A stretch of DNA of 64,000 nucleotides from Promethearchaeota archaeon (GTDB taxonomy: Archaea > Asgardarchaeota > Lokiarchaeia > Sigyniarchaeales > SOKP01). The notes beneath the pieces are model-generated. The model made no database searches. It had not been told where the DNA came from and saw only the letters and a program-made list of their open reading frames with translations. Every line of letters begins with the position of its first letter. The first letter of the stretch is position 1. The position numbers were made by a program, and so were the translations under genes. The stretch spans positions 13,765 to 77,764 of the forward strand of contig JBHLPW010000019.1 of assembly GCA_048939015.1 (NCBI GenBank), read 5' to 3'. Below, one piece after another: positions 9,672-17,413 of the stretch.

Positions 9672-10349
9672 TTATTTTAGATTGAGTATACTCATTATAT
9701 CATCAAGATTAATTTCAGATAAATCCTTTATGATTAGCTGAGCTCCAGTCAATTCTTGCTTATTATGAGTAGTTGTAAGCGCAATCGATAGCATTCCTGC
9801 TCTTGTAGCAGCTTCTATACCTACAGGTGCATCTTCAATGACAAGACAATTTTCTGATTTTATGTTTAAAGTATTTGCAGCAATTGAAAAAACATCCGGT
9901 TCTGGTTTTCCTTTCTTAACGTCTGCTGCTGTCACAATAACATCAAATAAATCTTTAATTTTTAAACTATTTAAAAGAAGATCTACATTTTCAGCAGGTC
10001 CGCTTGACCCTACAGCTAATTTGAATCCCTTTAATTTTAAATCAGTTAAAATTTTGATAACTCCAGGTAATGGTTTTAATCTATCTCTTACCATTTCTCG
10101 ATAATTTTTTTCCTTAAATTCAGCCCACTTTTCAATTTGGACTTCATCTACTTTTGTACCTACTAATTTCCGAGTGATTGTGTGAGATTGTTGACCAAAT
10201 GTTAAATCAAAAAATTCTTTTGTAAATTCTATCCCAATTTCTTTTCCTAGTTTCACCCAACTCTCAAAATGAATAGGACCTGTATCAGCAAGTACACCAT
10301 CCATATCAAAAATAATACAATAATTAGAATTACTATGAGTAGAACTCAA
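9672..10349 (-). CDS. HAD-family phosphatase (beta-phosphoglucomutase-like)
   Basis: FDMDGVLAD, KGKPEPD, IEDAPVGI. Confidence 0.9.
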   Translation of the reverse strand: MSSTHSNSNYCIIFDMDGVLADTGPIHFESWVKLGKEIGIEFTKEFFDLTFGQQSHTITRKLVGTKVDEVQIEKWAEFKEKNYREMVRDRLKPLPGVIKILTDLKLKGFKLAVGSSGPAENVDLLLNSLKIKDLFDVIVTAADVKKGKPEPDVFSIAANTLNIKSENCLVIEDAPVGIEAATRAGMLSIALTTTHNKQELTGAQLIIKDLSEINLDDIMSILNLK

Positions 10350-10419: not shown

Positions 10420-13245
10420 TTAATCCTTGAAAATTATTTCCTTCCTCCAATACCACATAATACTAATTAAAGATATTAATGCGGTAGTAGTAAGAAAAAT
10501 GAGAAAAAGATCAAAACCAGGGATTACAGATTCGACGGTTTTTATAATGGTTACTTCAGAAAAACCTACATTTCCATTTGTATCACTCGCGTAAAATCGG
10601 AGATTATGAGTACCTCCGGGTAATATATCCCATAGTATTTGATCTATTTGTCCTGAGAGGCCACATGAATGATTTGTTATCCCACCATCAAGAGTATACC
10701 ATATCTCATCTAAAAAATCATCTATGGCAATAACATTAAATGATGGAGCTGTTACACTAAATTCTTCATTTTGATATGGTGAATTTATAATGATTATTGG
10801 ATTTATTTTATCCAACTTTACAGATACGTCATTAGATACTATTAAACCTGCTGAATCATTAATATAAAATGTAATGGTAACAGTATCACTAAGAATTAAA
10901 TCCCAGGCACCCTGATTAATAGTGCTATTAGAGATGAAGAAATATTTAGTTAGTAAAATGTCTAGAGTATACCACATAGAGTCTGGAACCCCAGTATCTA
11001 TTTCGATTATAAAGCCAGGTGCATTCCCTCCTATCATTTGGTTTGCTATAGGTGATATAATGGAAAACGCAGGAGGATCCCACCAGATTGGATAATCATC
11101 CTGTGTACCAGCATTACCTCCAATATTTGTATAAGGAGTGTCTCCAATCCCATCATCATTGGTATCATTACCAACATAATCATCCCAATAATTACCAATA
11201 ATTCCATTATCCCAAACGTTTAATATCCCATTATCTTCAGCATTCACTTGGTTCTCTGTAAAATTATTTCTATAAATTGTATTAAAATTAGTATCATCGT
11301 GCAGAAATATCCCAAACTCATCATTGAATTGAAAGTCATTATCAAAAATGTCATTATCATCACACCATGAAGATAAAAATATCCCACTATCCTTATTTTC
11401 AGAAACCTCATTATCTAAAATGGTATTTTCATTAGCATTTTCTAGACGAATTCCATGTTGCTCATTATTGGAAATATTATTTTTTGCTATATAATGGTAT
11501 AATCCTGTTACTTCTACTCCAGACGCTCGATTATGAGTAATATTGTTATATAATACCACATTCCCAGTATTTGCTATACTTAATCCACTATCAAAATTAT
11601 TTGATATTTTATTATTAGTAATATTATTATAATCTCCACTGACACGTATTCCCCAACGAATGTTATTTTCAAAAATATTTTCTGTAATAATATTTTCATC
11701 TCCATATGCAGATAGACCATTACTTCCGCATTTTGAAAAAGTACACCCTTTAATCAAATTAAATTTGCCATTATAGTAACTCATCCCATTATAATAGCAA
11801 TTTCTAATGTGACAGTAAAAAATCCTGTTATTACTACAATTATCAAAAGATAATCCATTTTGATTACTACTCGATGATATATTAGAAATCGTATTATTAT
11901 TACAGTTGTATGCCATAATTCCGGTATAGCAATTTGAAAGATTTAAATCCCTAATATATGATTTTTCGCATCCCACTAAAATTATCTGACCAGCATTTGT
12001 GAAATTCGAAGAGTTCAATCCCGTTTTTTTAGTATAAAAATACAGTGGTTTTTTATTTACTTTATTTGAAGTATCAATATTATTAAGATGAAGTTGTTTT
12101 GTAACTCCACCGATCCAATAGCCACAGTTAGACAATTTGTTATTTGTTAAATTACATCCTATGTCAAAATATAATGCAATCCCCGCGGAAGGATGATCAG
12201 ATACAATATTATTATTTACAGTTATATTTTTACTATAGCTTACATAAATTGCACTCCTTGTAAAATTTGAGTTTGTTATAGTATTATTTTTGCTTGAATC
12301 TACATAAATTCCTATATTACAATTTGATATGTTTAAATCTGATATCTGGGAATTATTACACTGTATCAGTAATACCTGACCCGCATTAGTAAAATTAACA
12401 GAATTTAAATTTGATTGATTATAATAGAAATAAAGAGATTTATTGTTTACTAAATTTGTGGTTTCTATTGTCGTAGTCTGAGCCCAAACGGGGAATCCCT
12501 CATCATAATAATAAGAAAATCCGCAATCATTTAGCATATTAGATGAAAAATTATTATTAACACCATTCATAATGAAAAGATAGATCCCTGAGCTATTATC
12601 TTGAAAATTGTTCGCATAAATCAAACTATTTGTGACGTCGTTAACCATTTCCAATCCATATCTATTATGTTTAAATGAATTTTCAGAAATAGTGTAATTA
12701 TCTCCCTGACTGATGCCTAATCCTACGTTATTTTCGATAAATTTATTCTGGGTAACAACAAAATCTTGACAATAACTAAAAGATACTCCATTTGAATTAT
12801 TCATGAAAGTATTATTAATGATTCTTCCATATGAATCCCAAATATCAAGTCCTTGACCAGCATTCATAAATGTACAATTTCGGATAATAAAATGTGCATT
12901 TGACTCCATAATCCAGATACATGCTTGTTGTTCATAACCAATCATTGTAATGTTTTCAATCACATATGGATCACTTATAGTTCCAGTTCCAGAACACCAA
13001 TCTTGAGTTGCAGCAGTTGACCAATTTATTGAACCTGGCCAATATGAGGGAGTATCATCAATAATTATGGTTGTATCCTTAAATACCCAGTATCCTGATC
13101 TTTTTAATTGAAAATGAGAAGTCTCTTCTGTAATCTTATCATTATTTAATATTTGTTTATGGAAATCGATTAGATATGTATTTATTAATAAAATTATGAA
13201 TCCAATCATTAAAACATAAATATGCCTTTTTTGCTTGGACTTCAT
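10420..13245 (-). CDS. Cell-surface right-handed beta-helix (NosD/CASH-like) protein with Ig-like domains and Loki-CTERM/PGF-type anchor
   Basis: N-terminal hydrophobic signal; many Asn-rich beta-helix turns; GNYWDDY...DDGIGD; two WYTLD Ig-like repeats; C-terminal IPGF + TM + RK. Confidence 0.88.
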   Translation of the reverse strand: MKSKQKRHIYVLMIGFIILLINTYLIDFHKQILNNDKITEETSHFQLKRSGYWVFKDTTIIIDDTPSYWPGSINWSTAATQDWCSGTGTISDPYVIENITMIGYEQQACIWIMESNAHFIIRNCTFMNAGQGLDIWDSYGRIINNTFMNNSNGVSFSYCQDFVVTQNKFIENNVGLGISQGDNYTISENSFKHNRYGLEMVNDVTNSLIYANNFQDNSSGIYLFIMNGVNNNFSSNMLNDCGFSYYYDEGFPVWAQTTTIETTNLVNNKSLYFYYNQSNLNSVNFTNAGQVLLIQCNNSQISDLNISNCNIGIYVDSSKNNTITNSNFTRSAIYVSYSKNITVNNNIVSDHPSAGIALYFDIGCNLTNNKLSNCGYWIGGVTKQLHLNNIDTSNKVNKKPLYFYTKKTGLNSSNFTNAGQIILVGCEKSYIRDLNLSNCYTGIMAYNCNNNTISNISSSSNQNGLSFDNCSNNRIFYCHIRNCYYNGMSYYNGKFNLIKGCTFSKCGSNGLSAYGDENIITENIFENNIRWGIRVSGDYNNITNNKISNNFDSGLSIANTGNVVLYNNITHNRASGVEVTGLYHYIAKNNISNNEQHGIRLENANENTILDNEVSENKDSGIFLSSWCDDNDIFDNDFQFNDEFGIFLHDDTNFNTIYRNNFTENQVNAEDNGILNVWDNGIIGNYWDDYVGNDTNDDGIGDTPYTNIGGNAGTQDDYPIWWDPPAFSIISPIANQMIGGNAPGFIIEIDTGVPDSMWYTLDILLTKYFFISNSTINQGAWDLILSDTVTITFYINDSAGLIVSNDVSVKLDKINPIIIINSPYQNEEFSVTAPSFNVIAIDDFLDEIWYTLDGGITNHSCGLSGQIDQILWDILPGGTHNLRFYASDTNGNVGFSEVTIIKTVESVIPGFDLFLIFLTTTALISLISIMWYWRKEIIFKD

Positions 13246-13433
13246 TTCAATATACCAACATTCCGTTAGTTAATTGTCATTTGGTTAATATCCTATTTAA
13301 TTGTTATGGATAATTGACTATAATGCAATAGTGGTATTTTGTCTAAATACAATTTAAAAATATCTTCGAATGGAGAATTTAAATATAAAAATGTCATAGT
13401 GGATATTATAAGATCTTAAAAAGCGAAATAATA

Positions 13434-16400
13434 ATGAAGGTAAAAAATAAAATCAAAGTCACATGTGTATCACTCGTAATTCTATCTGTTTTAAATATCT
13501 TCTCATATCAAATCTTCAATAATAGCACAAGTTCTAACAGATTTAGCGAAAAAAATGATAGTTTTGTTTTAAAAATTGCTAATTATTGGAATCTTACAGG
13601 AACACCAATTTATATAGATGATACAGCGGTTGGTACTTATGATTGGGCAACAATTAATGCAACCTACGATTGGTGTAAAGGTTCTGGGACTAAATCAGAT
13701 CCATATATTCTTGAGAATATTATTATTGATGGATTAAATACAGGAAACTGTATTGAGATATGGTATTCAAGCGTCTACTTCATTATTAAAAACTGTACCA
13801 TTTATAATTCTGGTGAATGGGATTGTGGTATGTATTTATATGACGTTTACAATGCCAAAATTCACAACAATACAGTTCATTCCAATTTTGAGGGTATCTT
13901 TTTCCAAGGAGATGGAGATTATAATAATGTTACTAACAATATCGTTAGAGATAATGGCCGTACAGGTATTGTTTTTGAATCCTTTAATGATTATTGTATA
14001 ATTCACAATAATACCGCAATTAATAATAATCAGCATGGAATTGTTCTAAGGCAAGAATGCATAAATAACACAATATCAAATAATTTTGTAAAAGATCATG
14101 TTTATAGCGGGATTCTTATTCAAGGAGGGAGTATTAACAATACTATTATTGAAAATACCGCAGTTAGAAATGCATTTGCAGGGATCTGGGTTTACAATAG
14201 TGATGATAATATCTTTAAAAGAAACAATTTCTCTAATAACATTGGATATGGCGTTGAAATTGAAGAAAGTAATACTAATAAGTTAATCGAGAATACAATT
14301 TATAATAATACTATTTATGGAATAGAATTTTCGTCATATGTATCTAATCGTGCTGAAAAAAATAAAATAATAAATAATAATGTTAGCAGCAATGGTATGG
14401 CAGGAGTTCACCTAGATGCGTATAGTATGAATAATTCAATTTTTCTAAATAATTTTATTGACAATAATATAAATGGTTATGATGAAGGTACCAATAATAC
14501 CAATAAATGGGATAATAGTATAATCGGAAACTATTGGGATGATTATCCAGGAGTAGATGACAATGATGATGGGATTGGAGATGCTCCATACGCAGATATA
14601 GGGGGGACAGTTGGCGCTCAAGACAACTTTCCTATTTGGTGGGATGCACCGAGGTTTTCCATTGTTTCACCATTATCAAGCGAGCAATTTGGGGATGTAG
14701 CTCCATCATATACCCTTTCATTGGATGGTGGATATAATGATACAATGTGGTACACATTAGACAATGGTATAACTAATCAAACCTTCACAGCTCTTATTGG
14801 AACAATAAATCAGAGTTTATGGAATAATACCGCAATAGGTTCTGTAACAATTAGATTTTATATGAGTGATATTCGAGGATTTACATCATATAAACAAGTT
14901 TTTATAGAAAAAATACGTTTTGAGACTTATTGGTATCTTGATCCTTTTGTAATCGATGATACGGGGGGAGGAGATTATACATGGATGGAAGCAGTCTCAC
15001 AAGATTGGTGTTCGGGAAATGGAACTTTAACGGATCCTTATATAATTGATTATATAAGAATTGACGGACAAAATTCAAGTAATTGTTTAACCATTCAAAA
15101 TTCGAATGCAACTTTTGTTATCAGCAATAGTTCTTTTTATTACTCAAGTGATGGAACCTTTGATGGAGGAATTGTACTAGATCATGTAATGAATGGATTA
15201 ATTATCGATTGCAATTCTTCATTCAATAAAGGGAATGGTATTGTTTTGAGTTATTGTCAATATATTATTATAACAAGAAACTCAATAAATTCAAATAATA
15301 AAAGCGGGATTTTTCTTTTCTATAGTGACCATAATTTGATTTTTAATAACGTTGAAACCATTAATAATAACACAATTAATGGAATCCTATTACTGTATAG
15401 TGATTACAATAATATTACCAATAACATTATTAATAACAATGCTGTGGGGGTATATATTCAAGAATCGAATTATAATAATATTACTGATAATGATCTTATT
15501 AATAATCTTATACCTTATAATCTTATAAGTGGATTAGAAAATATAATAGAAGATTTTTCATTTCCAAAGGGACCAGGAGGTAAATTCCCTTTTGAGATTA
15601 TTTTAATAATTCTGATTATTGCAATAAGTGCTATTGGAATTACAGGTAGTGCCTTAATCATAAAAAAGAGAAGATCATTTGCGGGAGTTAAGAAAAAAGA
15701 AATAAGTGAGAAAAAAAGGGAAAAAATAAGAAAAAAACTTGAAACTAAATTAGAATTTGCAGATTATCTCATAAGAGAAAGGCAAATTGATTTAGCGTAC
15801 AAAAACTTAGGAAAAATTCAAGATATAGCGGATATGTATGATTTTTTTGATATTTTTAATAAAGCTATTGAAAGAGTGGAACAATGTAAAGAAATCCAAG
15901 GAATTGCTAAACCCATTATAAGTGAAGAGATTAGTAAAACTGAAAAAAGAATGAAAGAAGAGACTATAGTTCCTCCTATGATAACAAGAGACGAAGAAAA
16001 GAAATATAATCTATTTATTAGTTATTCTACTGTTGACAGGGATTATTTTCAAATAAAAAAAATAGTAAAAGAACTAAAAAAGTTTCCAAAAATCAACCAA
16101 GTTTCATATTGGGAAAGAGACAGCAAAGCAAACATTGTAGAGTTCATGGATGAAACGTTAGAAGTAAGCAATACTTTCTTACTCTTTTGCAGTGAAAATT
16201 CGATAAAATCTAATGCCGTAAAAGATGAATGGCAAGCAGCCTTCCAAATGAGAAAACAAGGTTTAATTAAACTGATTCCGATATATGAAGAACAAAAACA
16301 CATTCCAAAAATACTATGGCACCTACTCAATGTCAAATATGAAAAAGACAATTTTAAGGGCTTTATTGAAAATCTCTATAAGGAAATTTTAAGAGAATAA
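13434..16400 (+). CDS. Single-pass membrane protein: extracellular beta-helix/Ig-like domains, TM, cytoplasmic helical linker and TIR domain
   Basis: Signal-like N-terminus; two beta-helix modules; TM at ~15585-15662 followed by KKRR; C-terminal LFISYS...FLLFCSENSIKSNAVKDEWQAA...LIPI (TIR_2-like, ~16005-16397). Confidence 0.88.
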   Translation: MKVKNKIKVTCVSLVILSVLNIFSYQIFNNSTSSNRFSEKNDSFVLKIANYWNLTGTPIYIDDTAVGTYDWATINATYDWCKGSGTKSDPYILENIIIDGLNTGNCIEIWYSSVYFIIKNCTIYNSGEWDCGMYLYDVYNAKIHNNTVHSNFEGIFFQGDGDYNNVTNNIVRDNGRTGIVFESFNDYCIIHNNTAINNNQHGIVLRQECINNTISNNFVKDHVYSGILIQGGSINNTIIENTAVRNAFAGIWVYNSDDNIFKRNNFSNNIGYGVEIEESNTNKLIENTIYNNTIYGIEFSSYVSNRAEKNKIINNNVSSNGMAGVHLDAYSMNNSIFLNNFIDNNINGYDEGTNNTNKWDNSIIGNYWDDYPGVDDNDDGIGDAPYADIGGTVGAQDNFPIWWDAPRFSIVSPLSSEQFGDVAPSYTLSLDGGYNDTMWYTLDNGITNQTFTALIGTINQSLWNNTAIGSVTIRFYMSDIRGFTSYKQVFIEKIRFETYWYLDPFVIDDTGGGDYTWMEAVSQDWCSGNGTLTDPYIIDYIRIDGQNSSNCLTIQNSNATFVISNSSFYYSSDGTFDGGIVLDHVMNGLIIDCNSSFNKGNGIVLSYCQYIIITRNSINSNNKSGIFLFYSDHNLIFNNVETINNNTINGILLLYSDYNNITNNIINNNAVGVYIQESNYNNITDNDLINNLIPYNLISGLENIIEDFSFPKGPGGKFPFEIILIILIIAISAIGITGSALIIKKRRSFAGVKKKEISEKKREKIRKKLETKLEFADYLIRERQIDLAYKNLGKIQDIADMYDFFDIFNKAIERVEQCKEIQGIAKPIISEEISKTEKRMKEETIVPPMITRDEEKKYNLFISYSTVDRDYFQIKKIVKELKKFPKINQVSYWERDSKANIVEFMDETLEVSNTFLLFCSENSIKSNAVKDEWQAAFQMRKQGLIKLIPIYEEQKHIPKILWHLLNVKYEKDNFKGFIENLYKEILRE

Positions 16401-16642: not shown

Positions 16643-17413
16643 CTATTCAATATATTTTAAAATTTCTGAAATATTACTGATCTTCCTAAGATTTAATACA
16701 TCAATTTCTTTTTCAAAAGGAAATTTATATTTTCTCTCTAATAAAATTGATTGTAAGTTCGCTCTTTGAGCTCCAATTATATCAGCATATTCATCTCCAC
16801 ATACTAAAACTGAATTAGGAAATTTTTCTAGCCCTATTTTCTTAACTGTATGAAAAAAAATACTTGGATCTGGTTTTCTTTTTCCAAATTTAGCGGATGT
16901 AGTTATATAGTTAAAATATTTTAATAAATCATGTTTTTTTAGCACATTTTTTATTGTTTTATGATTTGGATGATTAGAGATTAAGGCAATTTTTAGATTT
17001 CTGATAGTTAATTCAGCTAATGTCTCTTTAGTGTTTTCAAAGGGTTCCCATTGTTCCTCTTCACAGGAATGATATAATTCGGCTAATTCTTCATAGGCTA
17101 TATCAGTTAACAAATCTAAATTTTTAATAATTTCCTCCTTTTCAAGTGATTCTAGAACGTCTTGAAAGATCATACTCGTAGGAAATTCATTTTTTGTTTT
17201 AATGCTTTTTCTAAAGAAATATTGCCTTTGTTTACTAAATTTATTTATGAAAGCTTCATTTGTCAAAGTTTCATTCCAAACTTGTTTCTCTTTTAAAACC
17301 CAGATTGATTTTAGTAATCCTTTCTTAAAACATTCATAATACTTCTCAACAGAAGGATTATCAAAATAAAATAATGTAAAGCCAAAATCAAAAATTACTC
17401 CTTTAATCACCAT
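16643..17413 (-). CDS. HAD-family hydrolase
   Basis: FDFGFTL, ISN, KPDPSIF, GDEYADIIGA. Confidence 0.85.
   Translation of the reverse strand: MVIKGVIFDFGFTLFYFDNPSVEKYYECFKKGLLKSIWVLKEKQVWNETLTNEAFINKFSKQRQYFFRKSIKTKNEFPTSMIFQDVLESLEKEEIIKNLDLLTDIAYEELAELYHSCEEEQWEPFENTKETLAELTIRNLKIALISNHPNHKTIKNVLKKHDLLKYFNYITTSAKFGKRKPDPSIFFHTVKKIGLEKFPNSVLVCGDEYADIIGAQRANLQSILLERKYKFPFEKEIDVLNLRKISNISEILKYIE

Follow-up and report, generated by a model that had tools for sequence, protein, structure and literature searches.

To our knowledge, the TIR proteins known from prokaryotes are cytosolic sensors and effectors of anti-virus systems. In Thoeris, a ThsB TIR sensor is paired with a SLOG- or Macro-reader effector, and type III systems combine several TIRs with a SLOG effector. 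TIRs of the SARM1, AbTir, SPARTA and Cat1 type are, in general, switched on when they assemble. A TIR placed behind an extracellular sensor domain is, in turn, a hallmark of animal immunity. Here we describe a protein with this second layout from the Lokiarchaeia, close archaeal relatives of eukaryotes, together with the family to which it belongs. This TIR-tailed receptor family of Asgard archaea is absent from the literature we searched: work on Asgard TIR proteins consisted of defence-system surveys in which these receptors are not described, and no paper found there mentions both Lokiarchaea and a TIR domain (papers beyond those searched are possible).

The window analysed is a stretch of 64,000 nucleotides from one contig of a metagenome-assembled genome (MAG). 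The gene of interest, P0001, its parts and its divergent neighbour are as follows, with the basis of each assignment in parentheses.

13434..16400, + strand: whole gene P0001, encoding a 988-aa beta-helix–TM–TIR receptor (ORF and translation, Pfam, orthologues of 977–989 aa in syntenic loci)
13434..13523, + strand: N-terminal signal peptide or signal anchor, residues 1–30 (Lys-rich start and hydrophobic residues 6–29, by hydropathy and charge)
13602..14444, + strand: right-handed beta-helix module 1, membrane-distal, residues about 57–337 (Pfam Beta_helix/NosD, AF2, Foldseek)
14445..14645, + strand: module 1 cap, residues 338–404 (Asp/Gly-rich motif GNYWDDY...DDGIGD...PIWWD, also in P0002; AF2 confidence low)
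14646..14918, + strand: Ig-like beta-sandwich, residues 405–495 (AF2 strands, homology to two P0002 domains)
14919..15569, + strand: right-handed beta-helix module 2, membrane-proximal, residues 496–712 (Pfam, AF2 pLDDT above 90)
15597..15674, + strand: TM helix I722–I743, then KKRR, 744–747 (hydropathy, positive-inside charge pattern)
15708..15905, + strand: juxtamembrane three-helix bundle, residues 759–824 (AF2 pLDDT 89–98; kept in the closest roughly 25 tails)
15906..15989, + strand: flexible linker, residues 825–852 (AF2 pLDDT below 50; 29–42% identity among orthologues)
15999..16397, + strand: C-terminal TIR domain, residues 856–988 (TIR_2, ThsB_TIR, AF2, Foldseek)
16227..16229, + strand: E932 codon, GAA, in K-S-N-A-V-K-D-E-W-Q (sequence; lines up with the W..DEL Glu of Cat1 and AtTIR)
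10420..13245, - strand: P0002, head-to-head paralogue of 941 aa, a beta-helix surface protein with two Ig-like domains, a C-terminal TM anchor and no TIR (translation, Pfam)
13246..13433, no strand: divergent intergenic region, 188 bp, AT-rich, presumed promoters (sequence only)

From its N-terminus, P0001 runs through a signal-like segment, a beta-helix, an Ig-like sandwich and a second beta-helix to the TM helix and KKRR, and from there through the three-helix bundle and linker to the TIR. Searched whole against Pfam, it matches Beta_helix (1.8e-52), NosD (3.7e-40) and TIR_2 (PF13676; 3.1e-13, residues 861–965, 50.7 bits, cut-off 28). An earlier note, made from the sequence before any search, had read the frame at 13434-16400 as an ectodomain–TM–TIR protein and had proposed searching it with these three profiles and modelling its structure. 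All three profiles matched, AF2 models of the ectodomain and tail gave beta-helices and a TIR, and the proposed architecture is borne out by the reading frame, Pfam, hydropathy and AF2. P0001 is best read as a membrane receptor of type-I-like build, one of a family centred on the Lokiarchaeia.

The source MAG is split into 125 contigs with 6.5 per cent contamination, and for that reason only we considered whether P0001 might be a relic that has lost its function or a chimera created by mis-assembly. We found no support for this. The frame opens with ATG and stays uninterrupted for 988 codons in a genome of 28 per cent GC, the gene and its neighbourhood recur in independent metagenome assemblies and in an NCBI MAG, and the TIR is the best-conserved part of the protein among its orthologues (86–89% identical). 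A relic or chimera is therefore highly improbable.

Hydropathy identifies only two hydrophobic segments in P0001, at residues 6–29 and 713–745 (core I722–I743), and the first ten residues carry a net charge of +4. The ectodomain contains 28 NxS/T glycosylation sequons compared with 15.7 ± 3.3 in shuffled sequences (none of 2000 shuffles reached 28), and the tail contains none. The same asymmetry is found across ninety-two family members, in which sequon density is 3.46 per 100 aa for the ectodomains and 0.19 for the tails. Mean net charge over the fifteen residues flanking the TM is +4.6 after it and -1.2 before it, and the charge after the TM exceeds the charge before it in 89/92 proteins. 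From these patterns the TIR is predicted to be cytoplasmic, whether the N-terminal segment is cleaved or not, and the ectodomain to face outward, with one TM between them as in Toll-like and IL-1 receptors of type-I topology. Hydropathy, positive-inside charge and sequon asymmetry all agree with the earlier placing of TIR and beta-helix on opposite sides of the membrane.

In the AF2 model of the ectodomain, residues 59–327 and 505–707 form beta-helices (pLDDT above 90 in both), separated by a low-confidence cap (338–404) and a beta-sandwich (407–493, pLDDT 65–80). An N-cap motif, DWC.G.GT..DPY, occurs twice, at 79–91 and 524–536. Foldseek hits for beta-helix module 1 are AlgG/AlgE4 epimerases, PL6 lyases and phage tailspikes, and neither Pfam, AF2 nor Foldseek gave any LRR match in the ectodomain, which has the beta-helices and one Ig-like sandwich instead. 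The ectodomain is predicted to be a double beta-helix of carbohydrate-binding type, though a beta-helix protein of this kind may serve as an enzyme or as a structural part of the coat instead of as a sensor.

That ambiguity raises a second reading of the gene, as chiefly a coat, adhesin or glycan-processing protein whose TIR serves as a stand-alone suicide or dormancy module, with envelope damage or distortion (virus attachment being one example) leading straight to NAD+ depletion and no specific ligand or second messenger involved. The fold class of the ectodomain, shared with polysaccharide epimerases, lyases and tailspikes, fits this reading, as does the neighbouring P0002. The two proteins share the beta-helix modules, cap motif and Ig-like domains of NosD-type (CASH) surface proteins, with 34–37 per cent identity between modules, and their head-to-head pairing is kept in relatives; whereas P0001 continues into a 244-aa cytoplasmic tail, P0002 ends at its membrane anchor. 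Also in favour, a study of the cultured relative P. syntrophicum found no S-layer protein (PMC11284389), and most genomes of the family lack the SLOG gene described below. Against it, many family members carry solute-binding heads of the Venus-flytrap type, which are specific ligand binders, and receptors of the same architecture are linked to a SLOG reader elsewhere. The P0001 locus, moreover, lies outside any defence island. Its neighbours encode GluRS, a metallo-beta-lactamase-fold protein, an NMO, HAD hydrolases, a nucleotidyl transferase and amidases, a housekeeping neighbourhood that is syntenic across relatives, and none of these neighbours is an effector or reader gene (SLOG, Macro or others). 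We regard the coat-protein reading as unlikely. PADLOC gave no significant match, with nothing for the whole of P0001 and 15 bits for the tail (E 0.0028, a candidate family, no matched stretch), so that assignment to the Rst_2TM_1TM_TIR type, a defence system that one Asgard survey lists, is unsupported.

At the other end of the protein, the tail searched alone matches TIR_2 at 2.5e-14 (54.2 bits, cut-off 28) and ThsB_TIR at 1.8e-05 (25.5 bits, cut-off 21.2); with the whole protein as query, ThsB_TIR scores 20.5 bits, slightly below that cut-off. AF2 models residues 858–986 at a pLDDT of about 95 as five strands alternating with helices. Foldseek aligns this domain with probability 1.00 and TM scores of 0.73–0.76 to 4w8g, 8yym and 7uxu (Hydra TRR-2, MyD88 and AbTir TIRs). 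The best PDB matches by sequence are the bacterial Cat1 (E 0.046) and the plant AtTIR (E 0.28). With a profile score above the curated cut-off and a flavodoxin-like fold, the C-terminus of P0001 belongs to the TIR superfamily.

Compared with the NAD+-cleaving TIRs of SARM1, AbTir, SPARTA and Cat1, P0001 has the same fold and a Glu at the equivalent helix position, E932 in the helix that follows strand three, a feature that is necessary but not sufficient for NAD+ cleavage. The equivalent Glu is present in 206/212 family TIRs, and a Trp directly follows it in 200/212. The aromatic of the W-x-x-x-E motif is missing, however. Four residues before E932 is A928, and Ala or Ser occupies this position in 190/212 family TIRs. 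In SARM1 the corresponding aromatic (W71, four before the Glu, E75) contacts the ligand (PMC7075850), and because Ala or Ser replaces it here the pocket of the family is non-canonical. The same source reports the Glu as over 70 per cent conserved across all TIRs, the TLR1/2/6/10 group included, so the Glu is not diagnostic of enzyme activity. Its near-invariance in the P0001 family, together with that of the adjacent Trp, suggests a constrained pocket. The earlier note had reported the Glu as E932 at codon 16227-16229 and had argued from it for catalysis. The residue and its conservation stand, while its diagnostic value is weaker than was claimed, the upstream aromatic being absent.

These results bear on a third reading, in which the TIR is a non-catalytic scaffold like those of TLRs, IL-1R and MyD88, and receptors paired by ligand recruit other proteins of the cytoplasm while NAD+ chemistry plays no part. 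Scaffold TIRs, those of Hydra TRR-2, MyD88 and TLR2, are among the best Foldseek matches, and the lost aromatic and a Glu also kept in the non-enzymatic TLR1/2/6/10 point the same way. Candidate recruits would be the LRR-PCI or LRR-PCI-TIR proteins that these archaea encode: an LRR-PCI gene sits between two TIR receptors in the P0001 genome, and related MAGs encode soluble LRR-PCI-TIR proteins with a TIR of the P0001 subfamily, and tandem-TIR proteins too. On the other side, the constrained pocket, the recurrent adjacency of SLOG genes (see below), which fits small-molecule signalling better, and the general observation that prokaryotic TIRs assayed to date are mostly NAD+-consuming enzymes all favour chemistry. 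Three soluble TIR proteins were also found in the P0001 genome, each only 15–18 per cent identical to the P0001 TIR subfamily. None belongs to that subfamily, which speaks against signalling through a MyD88-type adaptor, and we rejected these three as MyD88-like adaptors. We consider a scaffold role unlikely, and prefer a TIR that consumes NAD+.

The P0001 tail retrieved 654 clusters at 50 per cent identity, 120 of them at E<=1e-30. Searched by its signature motifs, the tail family was found in Asgard MAGs only. The TIR lies nearly always at the extreme C-terminus of the retrieved proteins, and 92/198 of them have a large ectodomain, one TM and a TIR, so the architecture is conserved in the kind of Asgard genome survey that the earlier note had proposed. 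The outer domains joined to this common TM–TIR tail include beta-helices, Peripla_BP_6/ANF_receptor, SBP_bac_5, FG-GAP/PQQ/WD40 propellers, PKD and fn3. Solute-binding domains of the Venus-flytrap type are classical, specific ligand sensors. The P0001 genome alone encodes six such receptors and two multi-pass TIR proteins. This is a multi-copy, ectodomain-variable family, so far Asgard only, in which surface sensor domains are connected to a TIR by one TM helix. Among the P0001 orthologues, the distal beta-helix is the least conserved folded domain (54–83%), and its divergence alongside a conserved TIR fits a fixed output with a changing input.

In its overall plan, P0001 resembles Toll, TLR and IL-1R proteins (including Hydra TRR-2), with a signal sequence, a large solenoid or Ig ectodomain, one TM and a cytoplasmic C-terminal TIR; the TIR folds are alike (TM 0.64–0.76), and both families diversify through their ectodomains. 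The differences are considerable. The P0001 ectodomain is a right-handed beta-helix of the NosD/CASH type rather than LRR or Ig, and its TIR comes after a three-helix bundle and a flexible linker. Compared by sequence with the PDB, this TIR shows no particular closeness to those of animals, the likeness being at fold level only. None of the three soluble TIRs of the genome is in the P0001 subfamily, and the putative output is probably enzymatic. The likeness to animal TLRs is most simply convergent, and the earlier picture of a TLR analogue with a beta-helix in place of LRRs holds as an analogy in layout and probably not as homology.

A candidate reader is found elsewhere in the genome. A RelA_SpoT+TPR+SLOG gene on contig C21 (SLOG region at residues about 507–660), the sole LSDAT_prok SLOG gene of the P0001 genome, adjoins a 4TM-TIR gene whose TIR is 60 per cent identical to that of P0001. 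In eight to nine further genomes, homologues of this gene come immediately downstream of TIR genes from the P0001 family, and the SLOG-adjacent TIR genes in relatives include single-TM receptors and a 979-aa NosD beta-helix–TM–TIR protein. The SLOG domains of Thoeris read cADPR isomers made by TIRs (bioRxiv 10.64898/2025.12.03.692087). This adjacency, seen at loci of paralogues and relatives and not at the P0001 locus, is the strongest indirect argument, a genomic one, that the TIR may make a signal.

The SLOG gene was found in only 15/64 genomes with the tail family, and in one genus the tail family occurs in 26/27 genomes and the SLOG gene in 3/27. Because it is missing from most tail-family genomes, it cannot be a general partner. 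Within the same family of genomes, the tail family is found in 15/18 SLOG-positive and 35/51 SLOG-negative genomes. This co-occurrence is weak, and the link to a reader therefore rests on gene adjacency and not on phyletic co-occurrence.

The comparison with Thoeris is accordingly mixed. The P0001 TIR belongs to the TIR_2/ThsB type and keeps the Glu, a SLOG gene stands beside paralogues and orthologues from its subfamily, and the genome has several TIR genes with one candidate reader. In contrast to the cytosolic ThsB sensors known so far, the P0001 TIR is membrane-tethered and carries an extracytoplasmic domain; the candidate effector is RelA/SpoT-TPR-SLOG, not SIR2-SLOG; the P0001 gene is neither beside a reader nor in a defence island; and most genomes of the family have no reader. 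The design would be like a Toll-like receptor outside and like Thoeris ThsB inside. It probably arose through the joining of a common TM–TIR cassette to interchangeable surface domains, independently of animal TLRs.

Receptors of the P0001 type are probably outside-in, putatively NAD-based signalling devices. An external ligand, most probably a glycan or a surface bearing glycans (on a virus, on a partner cell or on the coat of the cell itself), would bind the ectodomain and alter the proximity or orientation of the tails. This rearrangement would switch on the TIR, which would consume NAD+ and probably make an ADP-ribose-derived signal. In genomes that have one, a SLOG effector such as the RelA/SpoT-TPR-SLOG protein of contig C21 would read that signal; where there is no reader, the TIR may act by NAD+ depletion alone. 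We give about an even chance to P0001 itself being a ligand-gated receptor with an NAD+-consuming TIR that either makes such a signal or depletes NAD+. The larger proposal, that Lokiarchaeia run an outside-in TIR pathway, in which single-pass receptors with swappable ectodomains respond to glycans, solutes, viruses or partner cells outside and pass a TIR-made nucleotide signal to SLOG effectors, is one that we put forward tentatively, as possible but short of an even chance.

If the TIR is enzymatic and ligand-gated, outside signals could become NAD-derived messengers in an archaeon. If the pathway exists, no transmembrane TIR receptor system would be known from prokaryotes before it, and the logic of Toll-like receptors would have a precedent outside animals. 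Several questions would then become testable: how these syntrophic archaea sense partners, viruses or nutrients, what a non-canonical (A-x-x-x-E-W) TIR pocket produces, and whether receptor-type TIR signalling has arisen more than once.

Last, we compared the juxtamembrane three-helix bundle with the Atlas. Its neighbours there are generic TPR-like helices, with feature scores (0.81) at the level of chance, and the TPR-like resemblance is only a lead.

The gene P0001 (13434-16400, +) is an unbroken open reading frame of 988 codons in an AT-rich window (GC ~28 per cent). Its product matches Pfam profiles for right-handed beta-helix repeats (Beta_helix, 1.8e-52; NosD, 3.7e-40) and, at the C-terminus, TIR_2 (residues 861-965; 3.1e-13; 50.7 bits against a cut-off of 28), the three profiles that the earlier note had anticipated. 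When the tail (residues 745-988, after the membrane span) was searched alone, it matched TIR_2 (2.5e-14) and ThsB_TIR (1.8e-05; 25.5 bits against a cut-off of 21.2). Hydropathy finds only two segments hydrophobic enough to span a membrane. Based on the reading frame, Pfam, hydropathy and codon results, every element of the signal-like N-terminus, ectodomain, TM and TIR layout described in that note is present where it was placed. AlphaFold2 (AF2) models were built from a 15-row alignment for the ectodomain and a 50-row alignment for the tail.

Features of P0001
Residues 6-29: hydrophobic segment 1, preceded by a Lys-rich N-terminus (hydropathy)
Residues 59-327: beta-helix 1 (AF2, pLDDT >90)
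Residues 338-404: Asp/Gly-rich cap (AF2, modelled poorly)
Residues 407-493: beta-sandwich (AF2)
Residues 505-707: beta-helix 2 (AF2, pLDDT >90)
Residues 713-745: hydrophobic segment 2, the TM, core I722-I743, then KKRR (hydropathy)
Residues 759-824: three-helix bundle of the tail (AF2, confident)
Residues 825-852: linker of the tail (AF2, disordered)
Residues 858-986: TIR (AF2, pLDDT ~95)
16227-16229 (+): GAA codon of E932, in the motif A-V-K-D-E-W-Q (sequence)

Several lines of evidence bear on topology. Across 92 family members (proteins with a related TM-TIR tail), mean net charge over the 15 residues flanking the TM is +4.6 after and -1.2 before, and the after-TM charge is the higher in 89/92, a positive-inside pattern. 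In paralogues of P0001, the ectodomain position is taken by solute-binding domains, a kind of domain that belongs outside the cytoplasm. NxS/T sequons are enriched in the P0001 ectodomain (28, compared with 15.7 +/- 3.3 in shuffles), and the sequon count found none in its tail; family-wide, their density per 100 aa is 3.46 in ectodomains and 0.19 in tails. The cultured Asgard archaeon P. syntrophicum is known to glycosylate N-X-S/T sites (PMC11284389). Judged from these sequence features, the charge pattern, the sequon asymmetry and the paralogue heads place the TIR in the cytoplasm and the beta-helices outside, on opposite sides of the membrane as had been proposed.

P0001 lies head-to-head with P0002 (10420-13245, -), a 941-aa paralogue that shares its beta-helix, cap and Ig-like modules (34-37 per cent identity) and ends in a bare membrane anchor. 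The pair sits among housekeeping genes: one flank has GluRS, a metallo-beta-lactamase-fold protein, NMO and a HAD hydrolase, and the other flank another HAD hydrolase, a nucleotidyl transferase and two amidases. Because the same arrangement is repeated in independent metagenome contigs and an NCBI MAG, the locus is a stable chromosomal site and no mobile defence island. P0001 was not recognised by PADLOC models. Beside this repeated arrangement and the unbroken frame, a relic or mis-assembled chimera is an extremely improbable explanation of the gene. The two flanking HAD-family genes (9672-10349, -, and 16643-17413, -) keep their positions in relatives. In the closest metagenome relatives, an insert of ~5 kb that the window lacks separates the TIR receptor gene from the HAD hydrolase gene. 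It includes a 548-aa SBP_bac_3 and HATPase_c protein (L038:11557-13203, L039:5701-7347), which resembles a sensor kinase and has a solute-binding domain.

Among orthologues, the TIR is the most conserved part of P0001 (86-89 per cent identity) and the membrane-distal beta-helix the least conserved folded part (54-83 per cent), with the linker at 29-42 per cent. An output module that stays fixed behind an input module that changes would be expected to show such a gradient. Foldseek neighbours of the ectodomain belong to the carbohydrate-active beta-helix proteins (the alginate epimerases AlgG and AlgE4, PL6 lyases and phage tailspikes); they name no particular ligand, and the modelled fold fits a surface domain that binds or processes glycans. 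A coat protein or adhesin whose tail kills the cell upon damage would also have such a surface, and P0002 bears it on a bare anchor; we regard this reading as unlikely.

The tail alone, as query, retrieved 654 clusters at 50 per cent identity (435 at E<=1e-10, 120 at E<=1e-30), mostly long proteins with the TIR nearly always at the extreme C-terminus. A survey of ectodomain-TM-TIR architectures, suggested by the earlier note, found that the layout recurs and is conserved: 92/198 retrieved TIR-bearing proteins have a large ectodomain, single TM and TIR. Another 22/198 have an N-terminal multi-pass module, typically of four helices, and 67/198 have no TM ahead of the TIR; among these, many short proteins are probably fragments. 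A few carry two to four TIRs in tandem. Ectodomains joined to the tail include beta-helix, Peripla_BP_6/ANF_receptor, SBP_bac_5, FG-GAP, PQQ and WD40 propellers, PKD and fn3. The P0001 genome has 11 TIR_2 matches: six single-TM receptors (988-2187 aa), two multi-pass TIR proteins and three unrelated soluble TIRs. Its membrane TIRs are 52-67 per cent identical to that of P0001, except in a 314-aa multi-pass protein on another contig, C125 (33 per cent); the soluble ones reach only 15-18 per cent.

The tail profile was matched in 64/301 genomes of the phylum, clustering in the P0001 genome's own taxonomic family (49/68) and order, with several copies per genome, each count a minimum since nine candidates were scored per genome. 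Scanning 185,579 species genomes for the family's motifs gave 61 loci, all in Asgard MAGs or MAGs deposited only as 'uncultured archaeon'; those with a name are mostly labelled Promethearchaeota or Promethearchaeia, besides a few Thor-, Hermod-, Hod- or Odinarchaeota. What the closest relatives are called thus bears out the earlier note's assignment to an Asgard archaeon. Four proteins of the 4TM-TIR type (P0024-P0027, 818-833 aa) represent the type that most often adjoins the SLOG gene described below; in the member scanned, P0026, membrane module and TIR are separated by a segment resembling ArnB_C (archaellum regulatory network B, C-terminal domain; 2.4e-09, no stretch passing the threshold individually).

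Is the TIR an enzyme? In Foldseek it groups with solved TIRs of every functional kind, including Hydra TRR-2 (TM 0.76), MyD88, SPARTA TIR-APAZ, AbTir, SARM1, TLR2 and Cat1. E932 aligns pairwise with the Glu of the W..DEL motif in Cat1 and AtTIR; across the family this Glu is kept in 206/212 TIRs and directly followed by Trp in 200/212. The earlier note took the Glu as a sign of NAD+ cleavage, which is too strong, because the residue is conserved in >70 per cent of all TIRs, the non-enzymatic TLR1/2/6/10 group included (PMC7075850), and because the family has Ala or Ser (190/212 TIRs) four positions before it, where SARM1 has an aromatic that contacts ligand jointly with the Glu (PMC7075850). 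A non-catalytic scaffold would suit this substitution; adjacency to a SLOG gene points the other way, and we consider a scaffold unlikely. That adjacency is a better argument for an enzyme than the Glu, both being indirect.

The genome's sole LSDAT_prok SLOG gene (C21:32706-35276, -; 856 aa) encodes a RelA_SpoT nucleotidyltransferase, TPR and LSDAT_prok SLOG. Its neighbour is a 4TM-TIR gene of the P0001 subfamily, and the contig encodes two further TIR receptors. Homologues occur in 19/301 genomes, and at nine loci in the scanned species genomes one lies directly downstream of a family TIR gene; the upstream genes include single-TM receptors and a 979-aa NosD beta-helix-TM-TIR protein. In Thoeris, TIR-made cADPR isomers are read by SLOG domains (bioRxiv 10.64898/2025.12.03.692087). 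The 856-aa protein is a candidate to read a TIR-made signal and act as its effector; its alarmone-synthetase type of output would be unusual. Its presence in only 15/64 genomes with the tail family speaks against general TIR-SLOG coupling. Elsewhere, and possibly at P0001 too, there must be different readers or simple NAD+ depletion.

P0001 resembles Toll-like receptors in layout, but has no LRR or Ig head, and its TIR resembles those of animal receptors in fold, with no specific sequence affinity to them among PDB matches. Its output is probably like that of Thoeris ThsB; unlike Thoeris, it is membrane-tethered, with no adjacent effector and no defence island. Defining features of both are missing, and the most fitting label for P0001 is a variant among TIR signalling proteins. 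No description of a P0001-type protein was found in the searchable literature. The interpretation in the earlier note is supported in part: architecture, topology and conservation hold in P0001 and its family; for ligand, clustering and chemistry we infer, with roughly even confidence, a ligand-gated TIR receptor that consumes NAD+ or makes a signal.

Other genes lie near family TIRs. A 717-aa LRR and PCI-like protein (C6:26287-28440) sits between two TIR receptors, and related LRR-PCI-TIR fusions of 477-491 aa with the same TIR subfamily occur in other Promethearchaeota MAGs (L088:1990-3420, L096:2035-3507). Some receptor tails, e.g. on contig C94, have a PCI-like segment ahead of the TIR; the LRR-PCI protein may serve as a partner module in the cytoplasm. 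Directly downstream of a TIR receptor lies a 526-aa protein (C21:52411-53991) that lacks a TM and matches no Pfam profile; its type adjoins family TIR genes in 7/61 loci, twice together with the SLOG gene, and its neighbours in the Atlas, all hypothetical proteins, come from Promethearchaeota and Bathyarchaeota. Between the C21 TIR genes are two giant genes (C21:38138-52234; 2370 and 2276 aa), the first with weak Big_13 and PKD matches only.
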